From assembly GCA_043804755.1 (NCBI GenBank), contig JAZDIT010000044.1, positions 24 to 64,023 on the forward strand: a stretch of 64,000 nt of DNA. The letters run 5' to 3'. Source of the DNA: Patescibacteria group bacterium. GTDB lineage: Bacteria; Patescibacteriota; Minisyncoccia; Minisyncoccales; JAQTPW01. Below the pieces are notes generated by a model. The model was not told where the DNA came from and did not search any database. It was given only the letters and a program-made list of their open reading frames with translations. How positions within the stretch are numbered: the stretch's first letter is position 1; every line of letters starts with the position of its first letter. Below are positions 4,725-55,270 of this stretch, in pieces. A program made the translations under genes and the position numbers.

Positions 4725-4731
4725 TTGAAAA

Positions 4732-4755
4732 CCCGCCGCAAGGCGGGTTTTGGTT
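4732..4755 (+). terminator. Rho-independent terminator-like hairpin after rpsJ (CCCGCCGCAAGGCGGG + TTTTGGTTT)
   Basis: GC stem with GCAA loop followed by a T-run, 8 nt after the rpsJ stop. Confidence 0.55.
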
Positions 4756-4845
4756 TATACTTGAAATAAAATCGCATTCAGGATTTCTTTGATATTGGTT
4801 GACGGATATAGATTTATATTTTATCGTTTAAGAAAGGAGGGACGT

Positions 4846-4875
4846 ATGTCGTATTTTTATCTAGCTTCAGCGTGA
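4846..4875 (+). CDS. 9-codon upstream ORF (MSYFYLASA) with consensus ribosome-binding site; possible leader peptide
   Basis: AAGGAGG at 4834-4840, ATG 5 nt downstream, stop TGA at 4873-4875; lies inside the rpsJ-rplC non-coding insert. Confidence 0.3.
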   Translation: MSYFYLASA

Positions 4876-5024
4876 GGCTGCCCAAAACCGCAAGACTATC
4901 CAGGTATGTAATTTCTGATTGGCAACTAGTCTTGTCGCCGGTATTCAGCAGCCTAACCCAATATGCCCGTTTATCTGTCTGTTGAAACATACCAACAGCT
5001 CTAAACGGGTCCTTTTTATTTTTT

Positions 5025-5048
5025 CCGCCGAAAGGCGGGTTTTGGTTT
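5025..5048 (+). terminator. Second copy of the terminator-like hairpin (CCGCCGAAAGGCGGG + TTTTGGTTTATA)
   Basis: Near-identical 30-nt direct repeat of the 4732-4760 element. Confidence 0.45.
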
Positions 5049-5114
5049 ATAGCTTAAATTTACCCGACAGGATTAAGATGGGTTTTCTAAATATTCTTGA
5101 ACTGGGGAAAACTG

Positions 5115-5143
5115 TTGACATTATGTTTGGCTTAATATATACT
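5115..5143 (+). promoter_or_regulatory. Candidate sigma70 promoter for rplC and downstream genes (TTGACA-17-TATACT)
   Basis: Consensus -35 hexamer, 17-nt spacer, 5/6 match at -10; about 115 nt upstream of rplC. Confidence 0.45.
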
Positions 5144-5217
5144 TTCTTTATGAGTATACTATCTACATCCTTCGTCTGTTGACGAAAGATTAGAACAAGT
5201 ACTAACCGTTTTAATTC

Positions 5218-5244
5218 GCGGGGTTAGTGCCCCGTGTTTTGTTG
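5218..5244 (+). promoter_or_regulatory. Attenuator-like hairpin in the rplC leader (GCGGGG-TTAGTG-CCCCG + TGTTTTGTTG)
   Basis: GC stem plus T-rich tail, ending 14 nt before the rplC ATG. Confidence 0.3.
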
Positions 5245-5258
5245 AAGAAACAAAAAGA

Positions 5259-5849: not shown

Positions 5850-6481
5850 TGGTTAAAATAACAGCTTACAACCAGGAAGGGGAAGAAACGACAGAAGTCC
5901 TTTTGCCGAAGGAGGTTTTTGAAGTTAAAATGAACCCGGATTTGATACACCAGATAATTGTTTCACAGCTGTCTAACCAAAGGCAGGTTATTGCCAGCAC
6001 CAAAACCAGAAGCGAGGTTTCGGGAGGAGGCAGAAAACCATGGAGACAGAAAGGAACGGGTCGCGCGAGGCACGGTTCGACCAGATCTCCTTTGTGGCGC
6101 CATGGCGGGATAACTTTTGGGCCGAGAAACAAGGTTGTTTTCAAAAGAGAAATTCCCGAAAAGATGAGAAAAACGGCTCTTTTTATAGCGTTATCGGATA
6201 AAGTAAAAGACAATCTGCTGATAGTTTTGGATGATTTAAAATTGGAAAAGACAAAGACCAAAATTATGGCAGGCATTTTAAATAAACTTCCCTTAAAGGG
6301 AAAAACAGCATTGATTGTTTTGCCGAAAATGGAAAAGAGTTTGATCTCGGCTTCCCGCAATATCCCCGGAATCGGCACAACTCAGGCCAAAGATCTGAAT
6401 TGTCTGGACGTGCTTTCATATAAATACCTGATTTTATTAAAGGACAGCATAAAAGTAATAAAGGAAATTCTTTGTAAATAA
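5849..6481 (+). CDS. rplD: 50S ribosomal protein L4
   Basis: L4 family; overlaps the rplC stop. Confidence 0.9.
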   Translation: MVKITAYNQEGEETTEVLLPKEVFEVKMNPDLIHQIIVSQLSNQRQVIASTKTRSEVSGGGRKPWRQKGTGRARHGSTRSPLWRHGGITFGPRNKVVFKREIPEKMRKTALFIALSDKVKDNLLIVLDDLKLEKTKTKIMAGILNKLPLKGKTALIVLPKMEKSLISASRNIPGIGTTQAKDLNCLDVLSYKYLILLKDSIKVIKEILCK

Positions 6482-6486
6482 AAGTT

Positions 6487-6879
6487 ATGGCTTTTAATAT
6501 TTTTAAAAAAGAGGAATCCGGTGCGAAAGAAGTTGCGGTTCCGAAAAGCGAGGAGAAAAAAGAAAAAACAGCGAGAACGCCGAAAGGAAAGAGGCCCGGT
6601 TTTGCCTGGAGGATTCTAAAAGCTGCGCATGTCACCGAAAAAGCAACCGATTTATCCAATAAGGACAAGTATATTTTCAACGTTTACAAGAATGCAAATA
6701 AAAACGAAATACGGAAAGAAGTAGAAAACATATACGGCGTAAATGTCGTTTCTGTGAACATAATCAACGTCCATGGAAAGAAAAGAAGATTGGGAAAGAC
6801 CATGGGAATCAAGCCGGGATACAAGAAAGCGATCGTCGGAATACAAAAAGGACAAAAAATAGAACTGATGCCGAGATAA
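6487..6879 (+). CDS. rplW: 50S ribosomal protein L23 (N-terminal basic extension)
   Basis: L23 core in the C-terminal 90 aa; operon position. Confidence 0.88.
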   Translation: MAFNIFKKEESGAKEVAVPKSEEKKEKTARTPKGKRPGFAWRILKAAHVTEKATDLSNKDKYIFNVYKNANKNEIRKEVENIYGVNVVSVNIINVHGKKRRLGKTMGIKPGYKKAIVGIQKGQKIELMPR

Positions 6880-13329: not shown

Positions 13330-13872
13330 ATGGAAAACACGCAAAAAGAAACAAGTAAAAAAACGGACAGGCCTCAATTTTCGATGAACAGGCGGTCGTT
13401 TTCTCCTAAACCGGCTTCGGAGTTTGATTCGAAACTTCTGGATTTGGCGAGGGTTACAAGAGTCACTAAAGGTGGAAAACAAATGAGATTCCGTGCCGTT
13501 GTCGTCATCGGAGACAAGATAAAAAGAGTCGGCGTAGGAGTTGCAAAGGGTCTGGATGTCCAGCAAGCCGTTGAAAAAGCGACAAGGATGGCCAGAAAGA
13601 ACATGATTGAAGTGCCGATAGTCCAGGGTTCAATTCCGCACGAAGTTTATGCGAAATACGGACCGGCTGAAGTTTTACTCCGTCCGCAAAGGAAAGGAAG
13701 AGGTTTGGTGGCGGGAGGAACCGTAAGGGTTATTTGCGCTTTGGGAGGAATAAAGGATATTTCTTCGAAAATTTTAGGAAGAACGGGAAATAAATTGAAC
13801 AATGCAATGGCGACAATCATAGCATTAAAAAAGATTAAACATGGAATTACACCAGTTAAGGCCAACTCATAA
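13330..13872 (+). CDS. rpsE: 30S ribosomal protein S5
   Basis: S5 family (dsRBD plus S5 C-terminal domain). Confidence 0.92.
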   Translation: MENTQKETSKKTDRPQFSMNRRSFSPKPASEFDSKLLDLARVTRVTKGGKQMRFRAVVVIGDKIKRVGVGVAKGLDVQQAVEKATRMARKNMIEVPIVQGSIPHEVYAKYGPAEVLLRPQRKGRGLVAGGTVRVICALGGIKDISSKILGRTGNKLNNAMATIIALKKIKHGITPVKANS

Positions 13873-14272
13873 GCGGAAAAAAACAAAAAGAATAGGAAGA
13901 GGAGGCGTCCATGGATTCAATTGCGGCAGGGGAGCCAAGGGCCAGAATTCGAGAGCCGGAAAGAAATTCAAGCCGATTATCCGCGAATTGATTAAAAGAT
14001 ATCCCAAACTGAGAGGTTACAGATCCAAGAAAATTAATGATAAGCCCGCGGTTTTGAATTTGGAAATTCTGGACAAAAAGTTTGAAAGTGGGGATAAAAT
14101 ATCGCCGAAAGTGTTGATAGAAAAAAGAATAATCCGTAGAATAAATGGTAGAGTCCCCAAAGTCAAGATTCTGAGCAAGGGGGAGTTGAAAAAAGCCTTG
14201 ATTTTCGAAAATATCTCAGTTTCAAAAATCGCAAAAGAGAAAATCGAGAAAGCCGGCGGCGAAATAAAATAG
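13841..14272 (+). CDS. rplO: 50S ribosomal protein L15 (follows S5 directly; no L30 gene)
   Basis: MELHQLRPTHKRKKTKRIGRGG... L15; overlaps the rpsE 3' end by 32 nt. Confidence 0.9.
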   Translation: MELHQLRPTHKRKKTKRIGRGGVHGFNCGRGAKGQNSRAGKKFKPIIRELIKRYPKLRGYRSKKINDKPAVLNLEILDKKFESGDKISPKVLIEKRIIRRINGRVPKVKILSKGELKKALIFENISVSKIAKEKIEKAGGEIK

Positions 14273-43066: not shown

Positions 43067-44104
43067 ATGGCGGTCAAATTTAATCTGAAAATACTGAAAA
43101 ATCAGATCAAAAAAGGGATAGATAGCGCAAAAGACGAGAAAGAACTGAATGATATTCTAAAGGAATATATGGGTAAAAAAGGGCATCTGACCCTTATTTT
43201 GCGTTCTTTAGAGAGATTGCCTAAAGCAAAAAGAGCAAAAATAGGCAAAGAAGCAAATGAACTGAAAAATTATTTTCGGGTTCAGTTTGAAGAAAAAGCC
43301 GGGAAAGTCAAAGAAAAAATGCATAATGAAGCGGATGCGAAAGAGTGGATTGATATAACCGTGCCAGGGAAGAAACCGGCTCTCGGCCATTTAAATCCTT
43401 TGACGTTGGCAAAAATGGAAGTGGAGGAAATTTTCCAGTCAATGGGGTTTTCTGTTGTACAAGGTCCCGACATCGAAACCGAATGGTATAATTTCGATGC
43501 TTTGAATATTCCCAAAGATCATCCCGCAAGAGACCAATGGGACACTTTTTGGCTGAAAACCGATAATAACCCGCAACTGCTGCTTAGAACGCACACAAGC
43601 CCCGTCCAGGCGCGCTACATGGAAAAAAACAATCCGCCCTTGAGGATAATCGTTCCGGGAGACGTTTTCAGGCATGAAGCCACCGACGCCTCGCACGAAT
43701 TCCAGCTTTATCAGGTGGAAGGATTGATGGTGGATAAGGGAATTTCCGCCGCAAATTTCAAGGCGATTGTGGAAGAATTCTTTAAAAGATTTTTCAAAAA
43801 AGAGACAAAAATAAGATTAAGGCCTGATTTTTTCCCTTTTACGGAACCTTCCTTTGACGTCAGCATAAGTTGCCTGGTTTGCGGAGGAAAGGGTTGCCCA
43901 GTTTGCAAACAAACCGGTTGGGTGGAAGTTGCCGGCGCCGGAATGGTTCACCCGAACGTTTTCAAAAATTCAGGGCTGAATCCCAAAGAATGGCAGGGAT
44001 GGGCATTCGGTTTCGGTTTGGAAAGATTGACTATGATGAAATATAAAATAGATGATATCAGATTGTTCCGTTCCGGAGATTTAAGATTTTTAAATCAATT
44101 CTGA
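43067..44104 (+). CDS. pheS: Phenylalanyl-tRNA synthetase alpha subunit
   Basis: Class II core motifs. Confidence 0.92.
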   Translation: MAVKFNLKILKNQIKKGIDSAKDEKELNDILKEYMGKKGHLTLILRSLERLPKAKRAKIGKEANELKNYFRVQFEEKAGKVKEKMHNEADAKEWIDITVPGKKPALGHLNPLTLAKMEVEEIFQSMGFSVVQGPDIETEWYNFDALNIPKDHPARDQWDTFWLKTDNNPQLLLRTHTSPVQARYMEKNNPPLRIIVPGDVFRHEATDASHEFQLYQVEGLMVDKGISAANFKAIVEEFFKRFFKKETKIRLRPDFFPFTEPSFDVSISCLVCGGKGCPVCKQTGWVEVAGAGMVHPNVFKNSGLNPKEWQGWAFGFGLERLTMMKYKIDDIRLFRSGDLRFLNQF

Positions 44105-46140
44105 TGAAATTTTCATATAACTGGTTACAATCTTTTTTCACAAAAAAATTGCCTATACCCGAAGAACTGGCAAAAGTTTTAACGTTACATTTCGCGGAAG
44201 TTGAAGATGTAAAAAAAGAAGGAAACGATTCCGTCCTGGATATCGATGTCAGGCCTAACAGGGCCGGCGATTGCTTATCTCATATTGGCATTGCGCGGGA
44301 AATATCAGCGATATTGAATTACAAATTAAAAATTCCGGATTCCAAATTTATTGAAGATAAAAAGCTTAAAGCAAGAGATTTTGTAAGCGTAAGATTTGAA
44401 GGTAAGGGTCCCTGTGCAAGATATACGGCAAGGGTCGTCAGCGGATTGGAAGTGGGTCCTTCGCCGGAATGGATTCAGGAAAGGCTGCGAGTCTGCGGTT
44501 TGAGGCCGATTAACAACGTCGTTGATATAGCAAACTACGTTATGCTTGAAACGGGTCAACCTCTGCATGCCTTTGATAATGAGAAAATAGAGGGCAGGGG
44601 AATAGTGGTGAGATTCGCAAAAAACGGGGAAAGAATCGTAACTCTGGACGAAAACAAATATGATCTGGATGATGAAATATTAGTGATTGCCGACAGTAAA
44701 AAACCGATGGCGATAGCGGGTATTAAAGGCGGAAAAATTCCCGAAGTGGATAAAAATACGAAAACGATAGTCATAGAGTCGGCAAATTTCAATTCTCAGG
44801 TTATCAGAAGGGCTTCAGGGAAAATAAATTTAAAAACGGATGCTTCTTTGAGATTTGAGCATGGGATAGACCCGAACATGGCGGAATCTGCGATAAACAG
44901 GGCGGCATATCTGATTAAAAAAATTGCCGGCGGGAGAGTAACAGGAGGATTAATCGATATTTACCCGAAAAAAATTTTCCCGAAGTTTATAAAACTGGAT
45001 TTGGCATATGCAAAAAGTCTTTTAGGAGTGGAAATTCCCACGGAAAAGATAAAAACTATTCTCGAAAATCTTGATTTCGAAATCAGAAACAGAAAATTAA
45101 AGAATCCGAAATTTTTGGACATCAAAGTCCCGACCCGCAGGATTGACGTTTCAATACCGGAAGACCTGATCGAAGAAATCGGAAGAATTTACGGTTATGG
45201 AAAAATTACCGCCGTTTTCCCCAGAACCTCTCTTATCCCTCCGAAAAGGAACTTGGATATTTTCTGGGAGGATGCAGTGAAGAATATTCTGAAAGAAATC
45301 GGTTTCACGGAGGTTTACAATTATTGTTTCATATCGGATGCGGATAAAGACATATTCGGTAACGGGAAACTGATTGAAATTGAAAATCCTTTGAGTGTCG
45401 ACCAAAAATATCTGAGGCCGAGCTTGGTACCGAATTTATTGAAAGCCGTCCAAAAAAACGAAAAGAATTCGGGGAAAATTAAAATTTTCGAACTCGGGAA
45501 AACTTTTAAAAAAGAAGGAAGCGATTTTAAAGAGAAAAGAATGCTTACCCTTGCGGTTTTGGGAGAAGAATTTTACGGGTTAAAAGGCGTTGCTGATGCA
45601 TTGTTGGAGAAGCTTGGCATAGGAAATGTCTGGTATGATTCGTTCAAGCCGACTCCCGAGGAAACCAAATTATCGATGTGGCATTCAAAAAAGTGCGCGG
45701 AAGTCAAAATCGACGATAAGGAAATCGGCTTTCTTGGAGAAATTTCCCCAAGAGTTCTCGGAGATCTGAAAATTTCCAGAACAACCGTGCTGGATATTGA
45801 TTTCGATTTATTGTGCAAACATTGTTCGGAAGAGCATGAATACCGGCCGATTTCCAAATTTCCGGCCGCAGTGCGCGATATTTCAATCCTGGTTCCAAAA
45901 GACGTATTGGTTGAGGAAGTTTTAAATAAAATCGAAAAAGCCGGAGGAAACACCATACGCGACATAGATCTTTTCGATATTTATGAAGGTAATGAACTCC
46001 CCGGGCAGAAGAAAAATCTGGCTTTCCATATAATCTATCAGGCAGAAGACAGAACGCTGTCTTCGGTCGAAATAGACGAGATACAAAATAAAATAATAAA
46101 AGCTTTGGAAAAGATGTCGGAATGGCAGGTAAGAAAATAA
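44104..46140 (+). CDS. pheT: Phenylalanyl-tRNA synthetase beta subunit (short form)
   Basis: B3/B4, B5 and anticodon-binding domains; 678 aa. Confidence 0.9.
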   Translation: MKFSYNWLQSFFTKKLPIPEELAKVLTLHFAEVEDVKKEGNDSVLDIDVRPNRAGDCLSHIGIAREISAILNYKLKIPDSKFIEDKKLKARDFVSVRFEGKGPCARYTARVVSGLEVGPSPEWIQERLRVCGLRPINNVVDIANYVMLETGQPLHAFDNEKIEGRGIVVRFAKNGERIVTLDENKYDLDDEILVIADSKKPMAIAGIKGGKIPEVDKNTKTIVIESANFNSQVIRRASGKINLKTDASLRFEHGIDPNMAESAINRAAYLIKKIAGGRVTGGLIDIYPKKIFPKFIKLDLAYAKSLLGVEIPTEKIKTILENLDFEIRNRKLKNPKFLDIKVPTRRIDVSIPEDLIEEIGRIYGYGKITAVFPRTSLIPPKRNLDIFWEDAVKNILKEIGFTEVYNYCFISDADKDIFGNGKLIEIENPLSVDQKYLRPSLVPNLLKAVQKNEKNSGKIKIFELGKTFKKEGSDFKEKRMLTLAVLGEEFYGLKGVADALLEKLGIGNVWYDSFKPTPEETKLSMWHSKKCAEVKIDDKEIGFLGEISPRVLGDLKISRTTVLDIDFDLLCKHCSEEHEYRPISKFPAAVRDISILVPKDVLVEEVLNKIEKAGGNTIRDIDLFDIYEGNELPGQKKNLAFHIIYQAEDRTLSSVEIDEIQNKIIKALEKMSEWQVRK

Positions 46141-46161: not shown

Positions 46162-48084
46162 ATGACAAAAGAAAACAAACCAGAATCAAACTATACGGCA
46201 AAAGATATTTATGTTTTGGAAGGGCTTGATCCGGTCAGGAAACGGCCGGCAATGTATATAGGTTCTACGGGACCGGACGGTCTTCATCATTTGGTTTGGG
46301 AAGTGGTTGATAATTCGCTTGATGAAGCGATGGCCGGCTTCGCAAAAAACATTGAAGTTGCTTTGCTTGTGCATGACAGAGTGAGAACAAGCGATGACGG
46401 AAGGGGAATTCCCGTTGATATACATAAGCAAACGAAAAAATCCGCCCTGGAAACAGTTATTACCACTTTGCATGCGGGTGGAAAATTCGGCGGAGAGGCC
46501 TATAAAGTTTCAGGAGGTTTGCACGGAGTCGGAATTTCGGTGGTCTGTGCACTATCTACATGGATGAGGGCGGAAGTTTGCCGGGACGGATTTCTGCACG
46601 CGCAGGAATATTCAAAAGGAAAAGTGAAAACACCCGTCAGAAAAGAAGGAAAATGCAAAAAAACCGGAACGACAATAATCTTTGAACCCGATGTGGAAAT
46701 TTTCAAAGAAATAAAGTTTGAATCGAAAAGAATAATCAACCATCTGAGGCAACAGGCCTATCTTACGAAAGGAGTCAGGATCAACATTATCGACAGCAGA
46801 GAAAAACCGGAAAAAACATACACATTTTATTTTGAAGGAGGTCTCGCTTCATATGTGAAGTATCTTATAAAAGGAAGCGTTCCAAGGCATCCGAATCTGT
46901 TTTACGTTTCTGGAGAATACGGCGGAATTTTGGTTGAAGCCGGTTTCCAATATACCGAAGAATTCGAAACCTATGAAGAAAGTTTCGCAAATAACATCTG
47001 GACGCAAGAAGGAGGCACTCACCTTACCGGTTTCAGGACTGCGATAACAAGAACATTCAACGATTATGCAAGGAAAAACAGTCTTCTCAAAGAAGATGAA
47101 GAGAATTTAAGCGGAGAAGATATAAGGGAAGGACTGACCGGAGTCGTTTCGGTGAAAATACAGGAACCTCAATTCGAGGGCCAGACAAAAGCAAAACTCG
47201 GCAATGCCGAGGCAAAAGTATCAGTAGAAAACGTGGTCTCCGATGCTTTGGCGGATTTTCTCGAGAGAAACCCGCAGGATGCGAGAGCTATCATCGAAAA
47301 ATGCATTTTGTCACAAAAGGCGAGGAAAGCTGCAAAAGTTGCAAAGGAAACGGTTTTAAGAAAGGGAATTCTCGATGGGTTGGCTTTACCCGGAAAATTG
47401 GCGGATTGCACCTCGCGAAAACCAGAAGAATGTGAATTATTTATAGTAGAAGGTGAATCGGCTGGTGGTTCAAGCCGCCAGGCGAGAGACAGACATTTTC
47501 AGGCCATTTTGCCCTTAAGAGGGAAAATACTGAATGTGGAAAGAGCGCGCCTCGATAAAATTTTGGAATCAAAAGAAATTAAATCTTTGATCATAGCTTT
47601 GGGCATGGCTATTGCGGATGATTTTGATATTGAAAAAGCCAGATACCATAAAATAGTTATAATGTGTGATGCCGATTCGGATGGAAACCACATAAGGACT
47701 TTGCTTTTGACCTTCTTTTACCGGCACTTCAGGCCTATAATCGAGAGGGGATATTTGTATATCGCCCAGCCGCCTCTTTACAGAATCCAGTCGGGAAAAG
47801 ACATAAAATACGCATATTCAGAGGAACAGAAGAATGAAGTGGTAAAATCCCTTAAAAAAGCAATCGGTATAAATATCCAAAGATATAAGGGTTTGGGAGA
47901 AATGAACGCTGAACAACTCTGGGAGACGACAATGGATCCAAAAAACAGGGTTTTGTTGCAGGTTGCCATTGATAATACAAAAGAGGCCGACAGAACCTTC
48001 GATATTTTGATGGGCGACGAGGTTTTACCGAGAAAAAAATTCATCCAGACGTACGCAAAGAAAGTGAGAAATCTGGACATATAA
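46162..48084 (+). CDS. gyrB: DNA gyrase / topoisomerase IV subunit B
   Basis: GHKL ATPase, TOPRIM (EGESAGG, DADSDG). Confidence 0.92.
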   Translation: MTKENKPESNYTAKDIYVLEGLDPVRKRPAMYIGSTGPDGLHHLVWEVVDNSLDEAMAGFAKNIEVALLVHDRVRTSDDGRGIPVDIHKQTKKSALETVITTLHAGGKFGGEAYKVSGGLHGVGISVVCALSTWMRAEVCRDGFLHAQEYSKGKVKTPVRKEGKCKKTGTTIIFEPDVEIFKEIKFESKRIINHLRQQAYLTKGVRINIIDSREKPEKTYTFYFEGGLASYVKYLIKGSVPRHPNLFYVSGEYGGILVEAGFQYTEEFETYEESFANNIWTQEGGTHLTGFRTAITRTFNDYARKNSLLKEDEENLSGEDIREGLTGVVSVKIQEPQFEGQTKAKLGNAEAKVSVENVVSDALADFLERNPQDARAIIEKCILSQKARKAAKVAKETVLRKGILDGLALPGKLADCTSRKPEECELFIVEGESAGGSSRQARDRHFQAILPLRGKILNVERARLDKILESKEIKSLIIALGMAIADDFDIEKARYHKIVIMCDADSDGNHIRTLLLTFFYRHFRPIIERGYLYIAQPPLYRIQSGKDIKYAYSEEQKNEVVKSLKKAIGINIQRYKGLGEMNAEQLWETTMDPKNRVLLQVAIDNTKEADRTFDILMGDEVLPRKKFIQTYAKKVRNLDI

Positions 48085-48165: not shown

Positions 48166-48357
48166 ATGGGAATTTTTACAAAAATTACAACATTTTTTAA
48201 GGAGGTCGCAATAGAAATGAAAAAGGTTAACTGGCCCACCCGCCAGGAAACGATAAAATACACCTTGATAGTTCTGGGTATTTCGGTAGGAGTGGCCATT
48301 TATCTCGGTGGCCTCGATTTTCTGTTTACTACGATATTAAACAGGTTTGTATTTTAA
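48166..48357 (+). CDS. secE: Preprotein translocase subunit SecE
   Basis: 63 aa, single C-terminal TM; precedes nusG. Confidence 0.85.
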   Translation: MGIFTKITTFFKEVAIEMKKVNWPTRQETIKYTLIVLGISVGVAIYLGGLDFLFTTILNRFVF

Positions 48358-48359
48358 CC

Positions 48360-48905
48360 ATGCCAAGACAAATTCTTCCACAAGAAAGAAATTGGTACGT
48401 ACTCCACACGTATTCGGGTTATGAAGATGCTGTTGCCAAAAATTTGAAACAGCGTATTGAATCGTTGGGAATGGAAGATAAGATTTTCAACGTCATTGTG
48501 CCAAAGGAAAAAAAGATTAAAATAAAGGACGGAAAGAGAAGAGTGACCGAAGAAAAGGTTTATCCGGGATATGTATTGGTGGAAATGGTAGTTACCGATG
48601 ATTCCTGGTATGTCGTCAGAAATACTCCGAATGTAACCGGATTTGTCGGAGCGGGTACCACTCCTGTACCGGTTTCAAAAGAAGAAATAGACAATCTGAA
48701 AAAGAGAATGGGGGTTGAAGAACCGCAATATAAGATAGAAGTTGAAGTCGGAGATTTGGTAAAAATTGTCGACGGCCCTTTCAAGGATTTCGACGGAAAA
48801 GTTTCCGAAGTCGATGCCGAAAGGGGAAAAGTGAAAGTGTTGGTCAATATGTTCGGTCGAGATACTCCAGTCGAATTGGATTCGTTACAAATTAAGAAAG
48901 TTTAA
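48360..48905 (+). CDS. nusG: Transcription termination/antitermination factor NusG
   Basis: NGN plus KOW domains. Confidence 0.92.
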   Translation: MPRQILPQERNWYVLHTYSGYEDAVAKNLKQRIESLGMEDKIFNVIVPKEKKIKIKDGKRRVTEEKVYPGYVLVEMVVTDDSWYVVRNTPNVTGFVGAGTTPVPVSKEEIDNLKKRMGVEEPQYKIEVEVGDLVKIVDGPFKDFDGKVSEVDAERGKVKVLVNMFGRDTPVELDSLQIKKV

Positions 48906-48917
48906 TTACTAATCACT

Positions 48918-49340
48918 ATGGCTAAAAAGATAAAAGCGGTACTTAAATTGCATATTCCTGCTTCACAAGCTACTCCCGCGCCTCCCGTAGGACCGGCTTT
49001 GGCTCAGCACGGATTAAACATTATGGAATTCTGCCAGAAATTCAATGCCGCTACAAAAGATCTGGTTGGCTTTAAAATTCCCGTTGAAATCATCGTTTAC
49101 GAAAACAGGACATATGATTTTGTTTTGCATCAGCCGCCTGCGTCAGAACTATTGAAAAAAGCTTTAGGAATCGAAAAGGGTTCAGGCGAACCCAATAAGA
49201 CCAAAGTCGCCAAGATCACGAAAGCTCAGCTTCGCGAAATTGCTGAAAAGAAAATGCAGGATCTGAATGCAAACGATATTGAAGCTGCGATGAAGATTAT
49301 CGAAGGAACTGCTAAAAACATGGGAATTACTGTTGAGTAA
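48918..49340 (+). CDS. rplK: 50S ribosomal protein L11
   Basis: L11 family ([19 protein letters not shown]). Confidence 0.95.
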
Positions 49341-49354
49341 TTCCTGTTTTTTAT

Positions 49355-49894
49355 ATGGCACAAAGACCATCAAAAGACGAATATTATCTCAATATTTCGA
49401 GACAAATCGGTTTAAGATCAACCTGTTTTAGAAATAAAGGGGGCGCGCTTATTGTTCGCGAAGATCAGATTGTTGCCACCGGTTATATCGGCGCTCCGAG
49501 GAAGACAAAAGACTGTTTGGAAAGAGGTGAATGCTTAAGAGACAGATTAAAAATTCCTCACGGGAAAAGGTACGAGATGTGTCGTTCGGTGCATGCCGAA
49601 ATGAATGCGATAGTCAACGCAGCCAGAGCTGGAGTAAGTCTTCTCGGCGCGGATATTTACATTTCCTTTGAAAATCCTAAAGATGGTACTCCTAGAGACA
49701 GTTTTCCGTGCTTTATATGCAAAAAATTAATCATCAATTGCGGAATAAACAGGGTAGTTTGTTCTACCGCAGAAGATAAAATGATAACCTTTCGGGTGTC
49801 TGATTGGGTTAAAGATTGGCAGGAAAAGGATCTCGTGGACGATGAACATCAATTCGGCACAGATTTAAATCTCAAGGAAGGACTCAAGGAATAA
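49355..49894 (+). CDS. dCMP deaminase (cytidine/deoxycytidylate deaminase family)
   Basis: HAEMNAI ... PCFICKKLI zinc-binding motifs. Confidence 0.85.
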   Translation: MAQRPSKDEYYLNISRQIGLRSTCFRNKGGALIVREDQIVATGYIGAPRKTKDCLERGECLRDRLKIPHGKRYEMCRSVHAEMNAIVNAARAGVSLLGADIYISFENPKDGTPRDSFPCFICKKLIINCGINRVVCSTAEDKMITFRVSDWVKDWQEKDLVDDEHQFGTDLNLKEGLKE

Positions 49895-49895
49895 C

Positions 49896-50468
49896 ATGCA
49901 AAATAAAATTGTTTGCGTTGTGGGTATGGCGGGTTCGGGAAAGAGCATAGTGTCTGATGAGCTGGTTAAAACCGGCTTTTTATATTTAAGATTCGGTCAG
50001 ATCACACTTGATAAAATCAAAGAAGATGGACTTGAAGTAAATGAGGTTAATGAAAAAAAAGTGAGGGAGGATTTTAGAAAACAGTTTGGAATGGGGGCTT
50101 TTGCAATTTTGAACATTCCTAAAATTGAAGAATTGCTAAAAAAGACAAATGTGGCAGTTGACGGACTTTACAGCTGGTCGGAATACAGAATCCTAAAGGA
50201 GAAATACGGCGATTCGATGTATGTTGTGGCAGTGTATGCTCCGCCGAAAATGAGGTATGATAGATTAGAAAATCGGAGTGCCGAAAATGACAATAATAAC
50301 CGTTTCCGGCCGTTCACAAGAAAAGAAGCAAAGAATAGAGATTACGCAGAGATCGAAAACATAGAGAAGGGGGGACCGATCGCGATGGCGGATTTCACCA
50401 TAATGAATACCGGTACGACAGATGAACTTAAAAAAGAGATTAATAAATTTTTAACGCTTATTGGATAA
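49896..50468 (+). CDS. P-loop nucleoside/nucleotide kinase of unknown specificity
   Basis: GMAGSGKS Walker A; NMP-kinase-like size; sits between dCMP deaminase and tmk. Confidence 0.45.
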   Translation: MQNKIVCVVGMAGSGKSIVSDELVKTGFLYLRFGQITLDKIKEDGLEVNEVNEKKVREDFRKQFGMGAFAILNIPKIEELLKKTNVAVDGLYSWSEYRILKEKYGDSMYVVAVYAPPKMRYDRLENRSAENDNNNRFRPFTRKEAKNRDYAEIENIEKGGPIAMADFTIMNTGTTDELKKEINKFLTLIG

Positions 50469-50473
50469 ACACC

Positions 50474-51106
50474 ATGCAAAAAAACACATATCCCGGGAAA
50501 TTCATAGTTTTTGAAGGTTTGGACGGTTCGGGGCAGAGCACGCAGGCAGGAAAATTAGTTGATTTTTTGAACGAACCGAAACAAAAATTAAAATTCGGGC
50601 ATACCGGTGCTCATCTTACAAAAGAGCCTACTTCATACTTGATAGGAGGTCTCCTCAGAAGCCAATTGAGTGGAGATTGGAAATCTTCGCAGGAATGTCT
50701 CCAATTGCTTTTTTCAGCCGATAGAGCACATCATTTGGAGAAAGAAATTATTCCCTTGCTTGAAAGAGGAGTAACTGTTGTTTGCGATCGTTATTTTTTT
50801 TCAACAATGGCTTACGGTTCTTTGGATATAAAAGATAAAAAATGGTTGGTAGATTTGAATAGAAATTTTCTGTATCCCGATATAACTTTTTTATTAAAAG
50901 TTTCTCCGAAAGTCTGTATAGAAAGAATTAATAAAACTCGTTACGGAGTAACTTTATTTGAGAAAGAGCAATCATTAGCGAAGGTATGGCAGAATTTTAT
51001 TGTTCTACCAAAGAAATTCAAAAACATCCATGTTATTAATGGAGAAAAATCAGTTGACAAAGTTTTTGAAGACATACGGAAGATTATAAATGGGAAATTA
51101 GTATAA
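50474..51106 (+). CDS. tmk: Thymidylate kinase
   Basis: FIVFEGLDGSGQST P-loop; DRY motif. Confidence 0.88.
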   Translation: MQKNTYPGKFIVFEGLDGSGQSTQAGKLVDFLNEPKQKLKFGHTGAHLTKEPTSYLIGGLLRSQLSGDWKSSQECLQLLFSADRAHHLEKEIIPLLERGVTVVCDRYFFSTMAYGSLDIKDKKWLVDLNRNFLYPDITFLLKVSPKVCIERINKTRYGVTLFEKEQSLAKVWQNFIVLPKKFKNIHVINGEKSVDKVFEDIRKIINGKLV

Positions 51107-52401
51107 TGGCGAAAATCTTCGTTTACGATGAATTTGCACCCGAGGACATTGCGATGATGCAGGCTCTTTATTCGAGGAGCCCAAAAAGCGTTACAGAGCA
51201 TGTTGAACAGGTAAAACAGACTGGCTCGGGCAAGTTCATGGAACGGTTTTATGTCGGTTACGGACATGCGAGCATTGCCGATTGCGGAAGTACCACCATT
51301 TTTATCGAAGGAATCAGCATTTTGGGGGATAAAGCAATCCAGGATTGGCCTTTTTACAGCGGACAGGAAACAAGCACCCGGTATGTTGATATGGCCAAAA
51401 GACCGATTGTCGATCCGATAGGCACGGGAGCATCGAAAAAGATACTCGATAAATGGATGGCATTCTACGCGGAAAATCTGCCCTTGATGGAAAGATTTTT
51501 AACAGGAAAGTACCCCAAAAAAGAATCCGACGATGAAAATGTTTACAAAAAAGCAATCAAAGCAAGAGCATTTGACATTTTGAGGGCATTTTTGCCAGCA
51601 GGAATCACAACACAACTTAGCTGGCACACAAATCTGAGGCAGGCTTGGGACAAGCTTTCCATTTTAAGGTATCACCCGTTAGATGAGGTCAGAACGACTG
51701 CAGAAAGCATCCTTGCAAAATTAAAAGAAAAGTATCCGCATAGTTTCAGCCATCGTCCGACGGAAGAGCAGGAGAGTTACAGGGAATATGCCGGCAAGAA
51801 TTACTTTTTATTCAATCCGCCGAAAGAAGAGGTGGTTGAATTTTCTTTAAAAACAGACATTAAGAAGGAAGAGTTGGAGAAATATAAGGATATAACAGAG
51901 AACAGACCCCCAAGGACGGGTCTCCCCATCTTCCTTTTCGAGTTGGGAATCTTGACCTTTGATCTTATTTTAGATTACGGCTCTTTCAGAGATTTGCACA
52001 GACACAGAAATGGGATTTGTCGGGTTCCGCTTTTGAGAACGGATATAGGGTTCAATCCCTGGTATCTGGAAGAATTGCCGGCCGATATAAAAGAAAAAGC
52101 TCTAAAACTTATAGAAGAACAGAAAGAGACAATCACGAAATTAAATGCGCCTCCGGAGATTTTGCAATATTATATCGCTCTCGGGTTCAATGTGCCATGC
52201 CACATTACTTACGGTTTGCCCGCGACCGTTTATGTCGTAGAATTGAGATGCGGGAAAATGGTACACCCGACTTTGAGAAAAATTGCGTTCAAGATGAGAG
52301 AGGCCTTGCTTGATAGATTTCCGAATCTTAAAATGAATTGCGACCTGGAACCCAGCGAATGGGACGTTTCAAGGGGTCTTCAGGATATAATAAAGAAATA
52401 A
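51106..52401 (+). CDS. ThyX-like (flavin-dependent thymidylate synthase family) protein, apparent tandem pseudo-dimer
   Basis: Second half has an RHR motif (LHRHRNG); first half has a GH...S..E.S.RY block resembling the ThyX substrate-binding region; 431 aa is about twice a ThyX monomer. Confidence 0.45.
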   Translation: MAKIFVYDEFAPEDIAMMQALYSRSPKSVTEHVEQVKQTGSGKFMERFYVGYGHASIADCGSTTIFIEGISILGDKAIQDWPFYSGQETSTRYVDMAKRPIVDPIGTGASKKILDKWMAFYAENLPLMERFLTGKYPKKESDDENVYKKAIKARAFDILRAFLPAGITTQLSWHTNLRQAWDKLSILRYHPLDEVRTTAESILAKLKEKYPHSFSHRPTEEQESYREYAGKNYFLFNPPKEEVVEFSLKTDIKKEELEKYKDITENRPPRTGLPIFLFELGILTFDLILDYGSFRDLHRHRNGICRVPLLRTDIGFNPWYLEELPADIKEKALKLIEEQKETITKLNAPPEILQYYIALGFNVPCHITYGLPATVYVVELRCGKMVHPTLRKIAFKMREALLDRFPNLKMNCDLEPSEWDVSRGLQDIIKK

Positions 52402-52403
52402 AT

Positions 52404-53096
52404 ATGGAAATTTCAAAATTAATCGACCAGACATTTTTAAAAGCTGATGCGACAGATGAAGAGATAAAAAAGGTTTGCGAAGAGACGGCGAAATACGGAT
52501 TCCGCGGGCTTTGTGTTTTACCCCAGCACACGAAATTGGCCAAAGAGTTGCTGAGGAATTCCGGAGTCAAAGTCACGACTCTGATTGATGAGCCGACTGG
52601 TGCGAGTTTGCATGAAAGAAGAATAGAAATGGTAAGAAAGGCGAAAGAGGACGGTTCCGATGAAGTTGATGTTGTTATGAAGATCGACATTTTCAAAAAC
52701 GGAAAATACGGTGAGGTTTTGGCCGATCTCAAGGAAATTACACCGATTCTTCCCACGAAAGTGATCATTGGTTCCGGTTATCTTACCGACGAAGAGATTA
52801 AGAAAGCATCTGAAACAGTAAAGGAATCCGGAGCAATTTGCGTAAAGACCGCTACCGTGAATGATCCTTTGGATCATTCGGAATTGGATGAAAAGACGAA
52901 ACATGTGAGAATAATGCGGGAATCAGCACCAGGATTATTGATAAAAGCGGCAGGTTCAATAAGAACTTTAGCTGATTTAAAACAGATATTTGAAGCCGGA
53001 GCTGATATCATCGGAACCAGTTCCGGTGTTGAAATCGTAAATGAAGCAACCGGTGCCGGGATAACAACTGACGAGGAGTGGAGGAAAATAGAGTAG
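52404..53096 (+). CDS. deoC: Deoxyribose-phosphate aldolase
   Basis: DeoC family (IDQTFLKADATDEEI, VKT Schiff-base lysine region); start moved to the ATG at 52404. Confidence 0.8.
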   Translation: MEISKLIDQTFLKADATDEEIKKVCEETAKYGFRGLCVLPQHTKLAKELLRNSGVKVTTLIDEPTGASLHERRIEMVRKAKEDGSDEVDVVMKIDIFKNGKYGEVLADLKEITPILPTKVIIGSGYLTDEEIKKASETVKESGAICVKTATVNDPLDHSELDEKTKHVRIMRESAPGLLIKAAGSIRTLADLKQIFEAGADIIGTSSGVEIVNEATGAGITTDEEWRKIE

Positions 53097-53254
53097 GGCG
53101 CTCAGGTAATGTTTTCCAAGGATATACAATAATTTTCCCAGCGTGAAAATTTTGTTCATTTCTCGGCTCGCTGTTTGTAACCATGCCAGCTCGCCTGCGA
53201 AGTGCTCCTTGCAAAGCATTGCCCTCGCTTTGGGAGAAAAATAAAATAAATAAA

Positions 53255-54703
53255 ATGCCTTATAAACCAACAATCGGGCTGGAAATTCACATAGAGCTGA
53301 ATACCAAAACGAAGATGTTCTGCGGTTCTTTGAACAACCCGGAAGAAAGACGTCCCAACGTCAATGTTTGCCCCGTCTGTATGGGCCATCCGGGAACTTT
53401 GCCCGTCATAAACGAAGAAGCGGTCAAAAAGACAATCAAAACTGGCCTTGCTCTAAACTGCCAAATTCCCGAATATTCCAAGTTTGACAGGAAAAATTAT
53501 TTTTATCCCGACCTGCCGAAGGGCTATCAGATTTCACAGTACGATATGCCTCTTTGCAAGGAAGGATATCTGGAAATTACCGGAAGAAAAATCAGAATAA
53601 CGCGCGTTCATCTGGAAGAAGATACCGGAAGGTTGATACATCCCGAGGGAGCCGGTTATTCCCTGGTTGATTTTAACAGGGCAGGAATTCCGTTGATGGA
53701 ACTTGTAACCGAGCCGGATATCGGTTCTGGCCAGGAAGCCAAAGATTTCGCCGAAGAACTACATCGAATTTTACATTACCTTGAAGTTTCCGATGCTGAT
53801 ATGGAAAAAGGCGAAATGCGAGTAGAAGTAAACATTTCTCTTTCAAAAAATGAGAAACTGGGGACAAAAGTTGAAATCAAAAACTTGAATTCATTCCGTT
53901 CAGTTGAGAGGGGAATTGATTTTGAAACCAAAAGGCAAGCCGAATTGCTAGAGAAGGGAGAAAAAATCATTCAGGAAACCCGGGGTTGGGATGACGTAAA
54001 GGGAATCACTTACAGCCAGCGGGAAAAAGAAGAAGCCCACGATTACAGATATTTTCCCGAACCGGATCTCCCTCCGCTTCATTTTGTTCCAGAATACATT
54101 ACAAAAATACGTGCCGAAGTTTCGGAATTGCCTCAGCAAAAACGGGCAAGATTCAAAAGGGAATTTGAATTGGATGAGAAAACGATTGAAATTTTTGTCC
54201 AAAATAAACACCTTGGAGAGTATTTCGAAAAAGTCATCAGTGAGTTTGGACCCAACCTCTCGCACGAGAAAATTATGGATCTCATAAAGCTTGCGTCAAA
54301 TTACCTGATTTCCGACCTGCTCGGATTGCTGAAAGGAGAGCCAATATCCGGGAATTTCCCGATAACTCCTGAAAACTTCGCACAGTTTATAGGTCTTATT
54401 TGCGATGAAAAAATATCCAGTAAACTGGCAAAGCAAATCTTGCCTGAAATGTTTACAACAGGTGCCGATCCCAACCATATTATAGAAGAAAAAGGGTTGG
54501 AACAGATAACCGATAAATTGGAGATTGAAAACATAATAAGAGAGATAATCGCAAAAAATCCCAAAGTTGTTGAGGACTACAAAAGAGGAAAAGAAAACTC
54601 TGTGCAGTTTCTTATAGGTCAGATAATGGCCCAAACGAATGGTAAAGCCAATCCCCAAATAGCCAGGGGAACATTGCTGGAAGAATTGACAAAACTGAAA
54701 TAA
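53255..54703 (+). CDS. gatB: Glu/Asp-tRNA amidotransferase subunit B
   Basis: GatB family; start moved to the ATG at 53255 (MPYKPTIGLEIH). Confidence 0.92.
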   Translation: MPYKPTIGLEIHIELNTKTKMFCGSLNNPEERRPNVNVCPVCMGHPGTLPVINEEAVKKTIKTGLALNCQIPEYSKFDRKNYFYPDLPKGYQISQYDMPLCKEGYLEITGRKIRITRVHLEEDTGRLIHPEGAGYSLVDFNRAGIPLMELVTEPDIGSGQEAKDFAEELHRILHYLEVSDADMEKGEMRVEVNISLSKNEKLGTKVEIKNLNSFRSVERGIDFETKRQAELLEKGEKIIQETRGWDDVKGITYSQREKEEAHDYRYFPEPDLPPLHFVPEYITKIRAEVSELPQQKRARFKREFELDEKTIEIFVQNKHLGEYFEKVISEFGPNLSHEKIMDLIKLASNYLISDLLGLLKGEPISGNFPITPENFAQFIGLICDEKISSKLAKQILPEMFTTGADPNHIIEEKGLEQITDKLEIENIIREIIAKNPKVVEDYKRGKENSVQFLIGQIMAQTNGKANPQIARGTLLEELTKLK

Positions 54704-54714
54704 TCTCGTATAAT
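54686..54714 (+). promoter_or_regulatory. Perfect consensus sigma70 promoter TTGACA-17-TATAAT upstream of mraZ
   Basis: 6/6 and 6/6 hexamers with a 17-nt spacer; AAGGAGG ribosome-binding site and ATG follow at 54738-54755. Confidence 0.65.
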
Positions 54715-54752: not shown

Positions 54753-55184
54753 ATGGTTACGAGAGGATTTTTCGGCTCGCATTTGTGTCGTCTCGCTGGA
54801 AACAGATTGCCGCTTCCGAGTAAATATCGTTCAGCATTCGGAGGGAAAGCGTTTATCGGGTTGAGCCCTGATAAATGTTTGGTTCTGTTTCCTGACTTTC
54901 CCGGAAAATTTCCGGGGACGATTACAGTGCAGGAAATTTCTGTGTGTAGCGGCAGTTTGATTACTCTGTCAAGGATCACAACTGCCAAAGAGGTGGTAGT
55001 TGCAGGTTGCGGGGATTATCTTGAGATCTGGGACAGTTTTAAAAGGTGGGAAAAAGAAAAAAAGAAAGCACAGAGGTTTTTGTTTAAATTGTTGAAGACA
55101 AAGGAGGATAGCGCATGGATGTTATTCTTGAGGAACTTCGCAAGAAATTTCCTCCGTTTAATAGCAATTGGTCTGGGGAAATAA
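54753..55184 (+). CDS. mraZ: Transcriptional regulator MraZ
   Basis: Two MraZ-type repeats (GNRLPLPSKYR...CLVLFP and ...DYLEIWDSFKRW). Confidence 0.7.
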   Translation: MVTRGFFGSHLCRLAGNRLPLPSKYRSAFGGKAFIGLSPDKCLVLFPDFPGKFPGTITVQEISVCSGSLITLSRITTAKEVVVAGCGDYLEIWDSFKRWEKEKKKAQRFLFKLLKTKEDSAWMLFLRNFARNFLRLIAIGLGK

Positions 55185-55242
55185 AAAGGCGATGGCGGGA
55201 GTCGCGTAAACTTCTGAATTCTCGCCTTCGGGCAAGCAAAAA

Positions 55243-55270
55243 GCGCGGATAGTCGATGACTGTCCGCGCT
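55243..55270. terminator. Bidirectional terminator between mraZ and convergent miaA (GCGCGGATAGTC-GAT-GACTGTCCGCGC)
   Basis: 12-bp stem with one mismatch; T-run on the minus side. Confidence 0.7.

Follow-up and report, generated by a model that had tools for sequence, protein, structure and literature searches.

Loss of ribosomal protein L1 has been published for OD1-L1, a subgroup of the Parcubacteria (Brown et al. 2015, as cited in PMC5220378, PMC7304191 and bioRxiv 10.1101/2022.01.07.475337), and the closed Nealsonbacteria genome DGGOD1a has been reported without L1 (bioRxiv 10.1101/2022.04.20.488981). In the canonical secE-nusG-rplK-rplA-rplJ-rplL-rpoB-rpoC cluster, the L1 gene (rplA) stands between the L11 gene (rplK) and the genes for L10 and L7/L12. 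The locus described here lies in a 64-kb stretch of contig JAZDIT010000044.1 (the window), from a tiny-genome groundwater bacterium of the Parcubacteria. The order and spacing of secE-nusG-rplK are as usual in this window, whereas rplA appears to have been deleted, a cassette of five nucleotide-metabolism genes (dcd-kinase-tmk-thyX-deoC) follows rplK, and rplJ, rplL and rpoBC are located elsewhere. We regard the cassette as a lineage-typical housekeeping operon for thymidine nucleotides in a fixed slot of Parcubacteria genomes, with rplA deleted in the OD1-L1 branch to which the organism belongs, and give this reading a probability of about 80%. The slot lies between the secE-nusG-rplK(-rplA) unit and gatB/miaA. 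L1 loss is already known for the lineage, and the mapping of the rplA deletion is new here. As cited in the sources above, the loss in OD1-L1 is a matter of presence or absence only; the present analysis places the deletion between rplK and a deoxythymidine triphosphate (dTTP) cassette that was already there. A published presence/absence call thus becomes a mapped event with both flanks preserved.

Genes were called from open reading frames (ORFs) together with Pfam and NCBIfam assignments, which agree with the gene identities of the preliminary description of this DNA. All genes from secE to gatB lie on the plus strand. The upstream unit comprises secE (48166-48357; PF00584, E 4e-20), nusG (48360-48905; PF02357 plus KOW) and rplK (48918-49340; TIGR01632, 195 bits against a cutoff of 142). 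It is followed by a gene for a Zn-dependent deoxycytidine monophosphate (dCMP) deaminase of the ComEB/dCMP_cyt_deam_1 type (dcd, 49355-49894, 179 amino acids (aa); PF00383, 58.8 bits), a P-loop protein with the nucleoside monophosphate (NMP) kinase fold of the UPF0200/SSO1041 type (49896-50468, 190 aa; AAA_18, GMAGSGKS), a tmk homolog (50474-51106, 210 aa; TIGR00041, 143 bits against a cutoff of 83), a long form of thyX (51106-52401, 431 aa; PF02511 over residues 17-212 only) and deoC (52404-53096, 230 aa; TIGR00126, 157 bits against a cutoff of 117). After a spacer of 158 nucleotides (nt; 53097-53254) comes gatB (53255-54703; NF004012, 635 bits), the conserved downstream edge of the cassette. 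The gap between rplK and dcd, previously given as 15 nt, measures 14 nt, and those between the cassette genes are 1, 5, -1 and 2 nt, in keeping with the tight, co-directional packing of five plus-strand genes already described.

The fixed slot is evident from a scan with L11, which used one genome per species and yielded about two dozen Patescibacteria loci alongside numerous cyanobacterial ones; loci are numbered here with the prefix L. In 13 scanned loci (L007-L011, L013-L015, L018, L023, L048, L061 and L082) rplK has no rplA behind it, and in 11 of the 13 the frame pheT-gyrB-secE-nusG-rplK...gatB-miaA(-) surrounds a nucleotide cassette. The exceptions are L061, with other genes in the slot, and L082, with gatB straight after rplK. 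The junction of rplK with the cassette, rplA being absent, was found in 14 further assemblies (L001, L003, L007-L011, L013-L015, L018, L023, L048 and L090), including the closed Nealsonbacteria chromosome CP179887.1 (L048). Two contigs that encode close homologs of the long ThyX, from a Nealsonbacteria metagenome-assembled genome (MAG; L001) and a JGI metagenome (L003), both read secE-nusG-rplK-dcd-(kinase)-tmk-thyX-(glyA-folD)-deoC-gatB. A metagenome scan with Tmk gave 80 loci, 33 of them bearing rplK, and the cassette begins right after rplK in all except one of these (32/33). Assemblies with the junction come from NCBI, JGI, ENA and Logan, and convergent miaA stands behind gatB in nearly all relatives. 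Chance does not account for the arrangement, since so many independent assemblies repeat both the junction and the order of the genes. In L082 (10001-12121), an L1-less relative, the whole nucleotide cassette is missing from the slot.

The preliminary description had the cassette inserted in the place of rplA, of which only the resulting adjacency is correct: relatives that bear L1 read rplK-rplA-cassette-gatB. Their individual orders are rplK-rplA-dcd-kinase...tmk (L034), rplK-rplA-x-kin-dcd-kin2-thyA-folA-tmk-mazG-gatB (L064), rplK-rplA...glyA-dcd-kin2-tmk-longThyX-mazG-gatB (L021), rplK-x-rplA-dut-SIMPL-thyA-folA-tmk-gatB (L012), gyrB-secE-nusG-rplK-rplA-dcd-tmk-shortThyX-gatB-miaA(-) (L151) and rplK-rplA-dcd-dut-tmk-rplJ-rplL (L074), the last with the cassette between rplA and rplJ. 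Since these relatives keep rplA between rplK and the cassette, rplA would have been deleted beside a pre-existing neighbor. In the lineage of the window, rplA alone appears to have been removed, so that rplK abuts the first cassette gene.

Searches by tblastn with L1 of Escherichia coli and Thermus thermophilus and with L10 and L7/L12 of E. coli found none of these genes in the 64-kb window, in agreement with the earlier statement that rplA, rplJ and rplL are absent before gatB. The same queries picked up their targets in dozens of control loci, with rplA after rplK in about 55. No L1 gene was found on the 64-kb contig, nor within 10 kb of the cassette in the L1-less relatives. The suggestion that the absence of L1 is real, and not the product of an assembly join, is borne out by the junction being kept in a closed genome and dozens of contigs, with GC content and skew unbroken. 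As in OD1-L1 Parcubacteria, rplK is not followed by rplA, and the flanking synteny is intact. The absence of L30 is a further feature that the window shares with this subgroup: rpmD is not present between rpsE and rplO, as in the Candidate Phyla Radiation (CPR)/Patescibacteria, and rpsE (13330-13872) overlaps rplO (13841-14272), leaving no room. These two ORFs were assigned by reading the sequences, with no hidden Markov model search. The nearest named L11 relatives of the window are labelled Nealsonbacteria and Wildermuthbacteria. The rplJ-rplL genes, and any rplA with them, were sought upstream of rpsL in three relative contigs and were not reached; rpsL is preceded there by genes for an M50 peptidase, a long AAA_17/ADK-like protein and a metallo-beta-lactamase, not by rpoBC.

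In the proposed operon, the Zn deaminase would convert dCMP to deoxyuridine monophosphate (dUMP), and the flavin-dependent long ThyX would convert dUMP to deoxythymidine monophosphate (dTMP) with methylenetetrahydrofolate and NAD(P)H. Deoxythymidine diphosphate (dTDP) would then be produced by Tmk or perhaps by the neighboring kinase, and DeoC would interconvert deoxyribose-5-phosphate with glyceraldehyde-3-phosphate and acetaldehyde. The deaminase matches PF00383 with 58.8 bits against a threshold of 25, carries the motifs HAE (residue 80) and PCFIC (residue 118), and matches PHROG 174 ('dCMP deaminase') with an E value of 8e-34. Its score for the ComEB equivalog TIGR02571 is below the cutoff (73 bits against 219), and its substrate should be dCMP judging from the neighborhood of tmk and thyX. 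DeoC has the lysine motifs VKT and IKAAG and scores above its equivalog cutoff, and its position beside gatB is conserved in the sub-lineage of the window. From this gene content, the cassette is predicted to encode synthesis of dTMP de novo from dCMP, not thymidine salvage. In one relative (L088, 1-1229), whose RpsL is 84% identical to that of the window, genes for the anaerobic ribonucleotide reductase NrdD and its activase lie about 9 kb upstream of rpsL; therefore, these organisms would not be wholly dependent on salvage of deoxynucleotides.

The position of the thymidylate synthase gene in the slot is occupied by different enzymes: long ThyX in the window, L001, L003, L005, L021 and L090, short ThyX in L007, L094-L096 and L106-L109, and ThyA with dihydrofolate reductase (DHFR) in L010-L012, L014, L015, L064, L117, L144, L146, L158, L162 and L163. 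Since short ThyX or ThyA with DHFR occupies the same slot in relatives, the gene order supports the long ThyX as a working thymidylate synthase despite its low score for the ThyX equivalog TIGR02170. The thymidylate synthase gene is sometimes adjoined by glyA and/or folD, as with both genes beside long ThyX in L001 and glyA in L090. The source of dUMP varies as well, being a dCMP deaminase in some relatives and proteins of the DCD/dUTPase fold in others. The cassette itself is standard pyrimidine deoxynucleotide metabolism; the conserved slot with changing contents is what is new here, and a slot with swapped types of thymidylate synthase and dUMP source is useful for metabolic annotation of the CPR. 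At the thymidylate synthase position of L009 (9945-11378), a 477-aa protein fuses MtrA-like, ThyA-like and PterinBD (DUF4346) parts; this unusual fusion hints at a different one-carbon carrier.

Several observations weigh against the housekeeping operon as described. The absence of rplA was observed on one contig of the source MAG, not genome-wide, and the cassette of the window is without glyA and folD. There is a terminator-like hairpin between rplK and dcd, so the cassette may not share the rplK transcript. The long ThyX falls below the TIGR02170 cutoff (24.3 bits against 87.9), and no single one of its domains holds the complete RHR...S (RHRxxxxxxxS) motif. Finally, Tmk is without the Walker-A lysine. 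In the route from dCMP through dUMP and dTMP to dTDP that the preliminary description set out, the steps to dTMP are plausible, and the step from dTMP to dTDP is not secure.

The hairpin at 49320-49353 (plus strand) is AU-rich and ends in a U-tract, which makes it a candidate weak terminator or attenuator. RNAfold gives it 12 base pairs, of which 3 are G-C. The element covers the rplK stop codon and takes up the 14-nt gap ahead of dcd, and no room is left behind it for a promoter. Hairpins at the end of rplK are stronger in L010, L011, L013 and L061, and overlapping genes take their place in L018 and L023. A conserved terminator after rplK was considered and rejected, the hairpin sequence not being conserved across relatives. 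Attenuated read-through from rplK into the cassette is the likeliest reading, and co-transcription of the cassette with rplK is uncertain.

The ThyX of the window can be compared with canonical ThyX, a homotetramer represented by TM0449 of Thermotoga maritima and the Mycobacterium tuberculosis enzyme. They have in common the Thy1 match (PF02511, 69 bits against a threshold of 24.8, over residues 17-212 of the long form) and equivalents of conserved residues, whereas the long form is about twice as long and its catalytic residues are split between two halves. The N-terminal half keeps H54, E88, S90, R92, Y93, R160, N176 and R178, which align with H53, E86, S88, R90, Y91, R147, N163 and R165 of T. 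maritima, and has D80-W81-P82 in place of RHR. The C-terminal half keeps R295, R299-H300-R301 and R381 (R74, R78-H79-R80 and R174 in T. maritima, by alignment) and is without S..RY. In an AlphaFold2 (AF2) model with a predicted local distance difference test score (pLDDT) of 81.5, the secondary-structure pattern occurs twice, and the first 50 PDB matches listed by Foldseek are all ThyX or its homolog PolB. Alignment by hhalign of a profile of the C-terminal half with short ThyX gave an E value of 4.7e-5 with RHR in register; a comparison of the profiles of the two halves with each other was not significant for an internal repeat at the sequence level. Because of the AF2 pattern, the alignment of the C-terminal half with short ThyX and the register of the motif, we read the long ThyX as a probable tandem duplication, with complementary sets of catalytic residues kept in its two halves. 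Such a protein would be expected to form a dimer with two, not four, complete active sites. The family is 63-80% identical across the CPR and comprises 497 clusters at 50% identity (E <= 1e-30), and searches of the literature for tandem or long ThyX in the CPR found nothing relevant. Homologs of about 30% identity in jumbo Vibrio phages are annotated as hypothetical, and the ThyX of Chlamydia may be a further long form.

The closest described relatives of Tmk are type I thymidylate kinases, with the Plasmodium falciparum enzyme (2yof) and human TMPK as the best PDB matches. The DRY, LID and dTMP-site motifs are common to both sides of this comparison, whereas the window Tmk has neither the arginine of the P-loop nor the invariant lysine of Walker A: its P-loop reads GLDGSGQST, with Gln21 (codon 50534-50536) aligned to the lysine of GLDRSGKST(Q) in 2yof. 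In an alignment with relatives from genomes and metagenomes, this position is Q, T, S, L, M, H or G in 76 Tmks of the clade (the window and 75 relatives), among them L001, L003, L007-L011, L023, L048, L064 and most of L093-L158. The lysine is kept only in six more distant cassette Tmks and in E. coli Tmk, and the DRY, LID and dTMP-site motifs are conserved in all aligned sequences. Residue 142 is K or R in 64/76 lysine-less Tmks and D, H or N in most lysine-bearing ones; this covariation with the lost lysine may be suggestive of compensation, although it is not absolute. As a universal replacement of the Walker-A lysine, K142 was rejected, since 12 of the 76 have no basic residue there. Nothing relevant to a lysine-less Tmk was found in the searchable literature.

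The best sequence and structural match of the P-loop kinase is the 'adenylate kinase-related' protein SSO1041/UPF0200 of Sulfolobus (PDB 3lw7/3h0k, E 2e-13), the function of which is not established either. An AF2 model of the kinase (pLDDT 87) superposes on 3lw7 with Foldseek template modelling scores of 0.75-0.84. Next come dephospho-CoA kinases, adenylate kinases and UMP/CMP kinases. There is a weak match to the archaeal (d)CMP kinase TIGR02173, and a homolog has a faint precomputed match to DNMK (PF21448). The kinase scores below the equivalog cutoff of NF006226/PRK08356 (47.5 bits against 189). The family is 70-80% identical across the CPR, with the GSGKS P-loop intact. Determination of the specificity by homology, which the preliminary description had called for, led to SSO1041-like proteins only and did not settle the substrate; a pyrimidine (d)NMP kinase is our best guess from these matches, at low confidence. 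The spc operon of other CPR genomes (L091 and L092, both at 6001-6573) has a homolog of 72-74% identity between adk and map; therefore, the protein is a conserved housekeeping kinase not tied to the dTTP cassette.

Among the alternatives, the one that survives best is that the lysine-less Tmk is catalytically impaired or works by a different mechanism, and that dTMP, or pyrimidine deoxynucleoside monophosphates (dNMPs) in general, are in fact phosphorylated by the UPF0200-like kinase. We consider this rather unlikely. It is favored by the 76 Tmks that have lost the lysine while their dTMP-site and LID motifs are still conserved, by the intact GSGKS P-loop and 70-80% identity of the UPF0200-like kinase across the CPR, by the frequent presence of this kinase or a second type (kin2) between dcd and tmk, and by the weak TIGR02173 match and the faint PF21448 match of a homolog. 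Against these stand the conservation of Tmk (50-79% identity) and its score above the TIGR00041 cutoff, which suggest an active enzyme, the K or R at residue 142 of 64/76 lysine-less Tmks, which might compensate, and the presence of such kinases in genomes with a lysine-bearing Tmk (L005, L021 and L034). A broader form of the proposal, in which thymidine nucleotide synthesis of the clade runs on non-canonical enzymes throughout, with the lysine-less Tmk, a tandem-fused ThyX and the UPF0200-like kinase as the true pyrimidine dNMP kinase, is unlikely, if somewhat less so. If it were true, the relocated basic residue 142 might partly compensate in Tmk, or Tmk would no longer be the kinase; the halves of ThyX would have degenerated in a complementary manner, leaving half the usual number of active sites; and the near-universally conserved UPF0200-like kinase would be related, as a stand-alone protein, to the kinase domain found in anti-phage dCTP deaminases. 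The unexplained variants of Tmk and ThyX are new here, and any of the Tmk clade, the tandem ThyX and the conserved kinase could lead to corrections of automatic annotation in thousands of CPR genomes.

Recent acquisition of the cassette as a mobile or phage-derived nucleotide island next to rplK is improbable in our view. In its favor, dCMP deaminase, Tmk and ThyX are typical of phages, jumbo Vibrio phages encode full-length proteins about 30% identical to the long ThyX, and the content of the cassette differs between relatives. However, the same slot is filled across deeply diverged Parcubacteria, with L11 identities of 64-79% and L1-bearing members included, and the variation resembles gene-for-gene exchange in a fixed slot. 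Pfam annotation of the gene tables, together with a tRNA scan, revealed neither an integrase or transposase nor a tRNA gene within the slot of the window, and GC content and skew are uniform across the region, with no compositional break.

A still more improbable alternative is that the deaminase and kinase form a nucleotide-depletion system like the anti-phage dCTP deaminase and not part of a housekeeping operon. The described system is a fusion of kinase and deaminase, and in the account given by Tal et al. (bioRxiv 10.1101/2021.04.26.441389) both domains are required. The window proteins represent the same two domain families (the kinase is a UPF0200-like P-loop protein, the deaminase is Zn-dependent) and match adjacent parts of the PADLOC dCTPase model (the kinase 154-333, over its full length, and the deaminase 340-484) as well as parts of NCBIfam NF041025. 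By these matches, the two genes resemble a split, reordered version of the dCTP deaminase fusion. Here, however, each is a small protein of its own, the gene order is reversed, the scores (56 and 41 bits) fall far short of the family cutoff of 400, the genes belong to an operon with Tmk, ThyX and DeoC and not to a defence island, and in other CPR spc operons close kinase homologs (72-74% identical) are found between adk and map.

An assembly or binning chimera, in which a nucleotide-metabolism contig was misjoined to the rplK end of a true rplKAJL genome, is effectively refuted: the source is a MAG and its contig bears no rplA, rplJ or rplL, but the junction and both flanks recur in a closed chromosome and dozens of independent assemblies, and there is no compositional break.

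Upstream of the housekeeping operon and its secE-nusG-rplK neighbors, the plus strand carries pheS (43067-44104), pheT (44104-46140) and an uninterrupted gyrB of 640 aa (46162-48084). In two relatives (L048, 5690-9208, a 1172-aa ORF, and L015), gyrB holds an in-frame insertion of 1.3-1.6 kb, most likely an intein, and a split gyrB match was also seen in L106, L108, L129, L134, L142, L148 and L149. The window starts with rpsL-rpsG-fusA-tuf, followed by the S10, spc and alpha operons. As many as 534 nt (4725-5258) separate rpsJ from rplC, compared with 110-185 nt in three relatives (L087-L089); this gap has no Rfam match, and its sole ORF is a doubtful one of 87 aa with a TTG start. An Rfam scan found three tRNAs only and no ribosomal leader.

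At the downstream edge, the start of deoC is most likely the ATG at 52404, 2 nt past the thyX stop, which gives 230 aa as in relatives; a TTG at 52338 is the less likely choice. The most likely start of gatB is at 53255, giving the 158-nt spacer, compared with 2 nt between deoC and gatB in the close relatives L001 and L003, and a weak promoter-like site (53219-53247) lies inside this spacer. On the 3' side of gatB in the window are a MraZ-like ORF (54753-55184) and then the convergent miaA/miaB. A perfect sigma-70 consensus promoter (TTGACA-17-TATAAT, 54686-54714) lies at the 3' end of gatB just upstream of the MraZ-like ORF, and a strong hairpin (55242-55270) is located between this ORF and convergent miaA.

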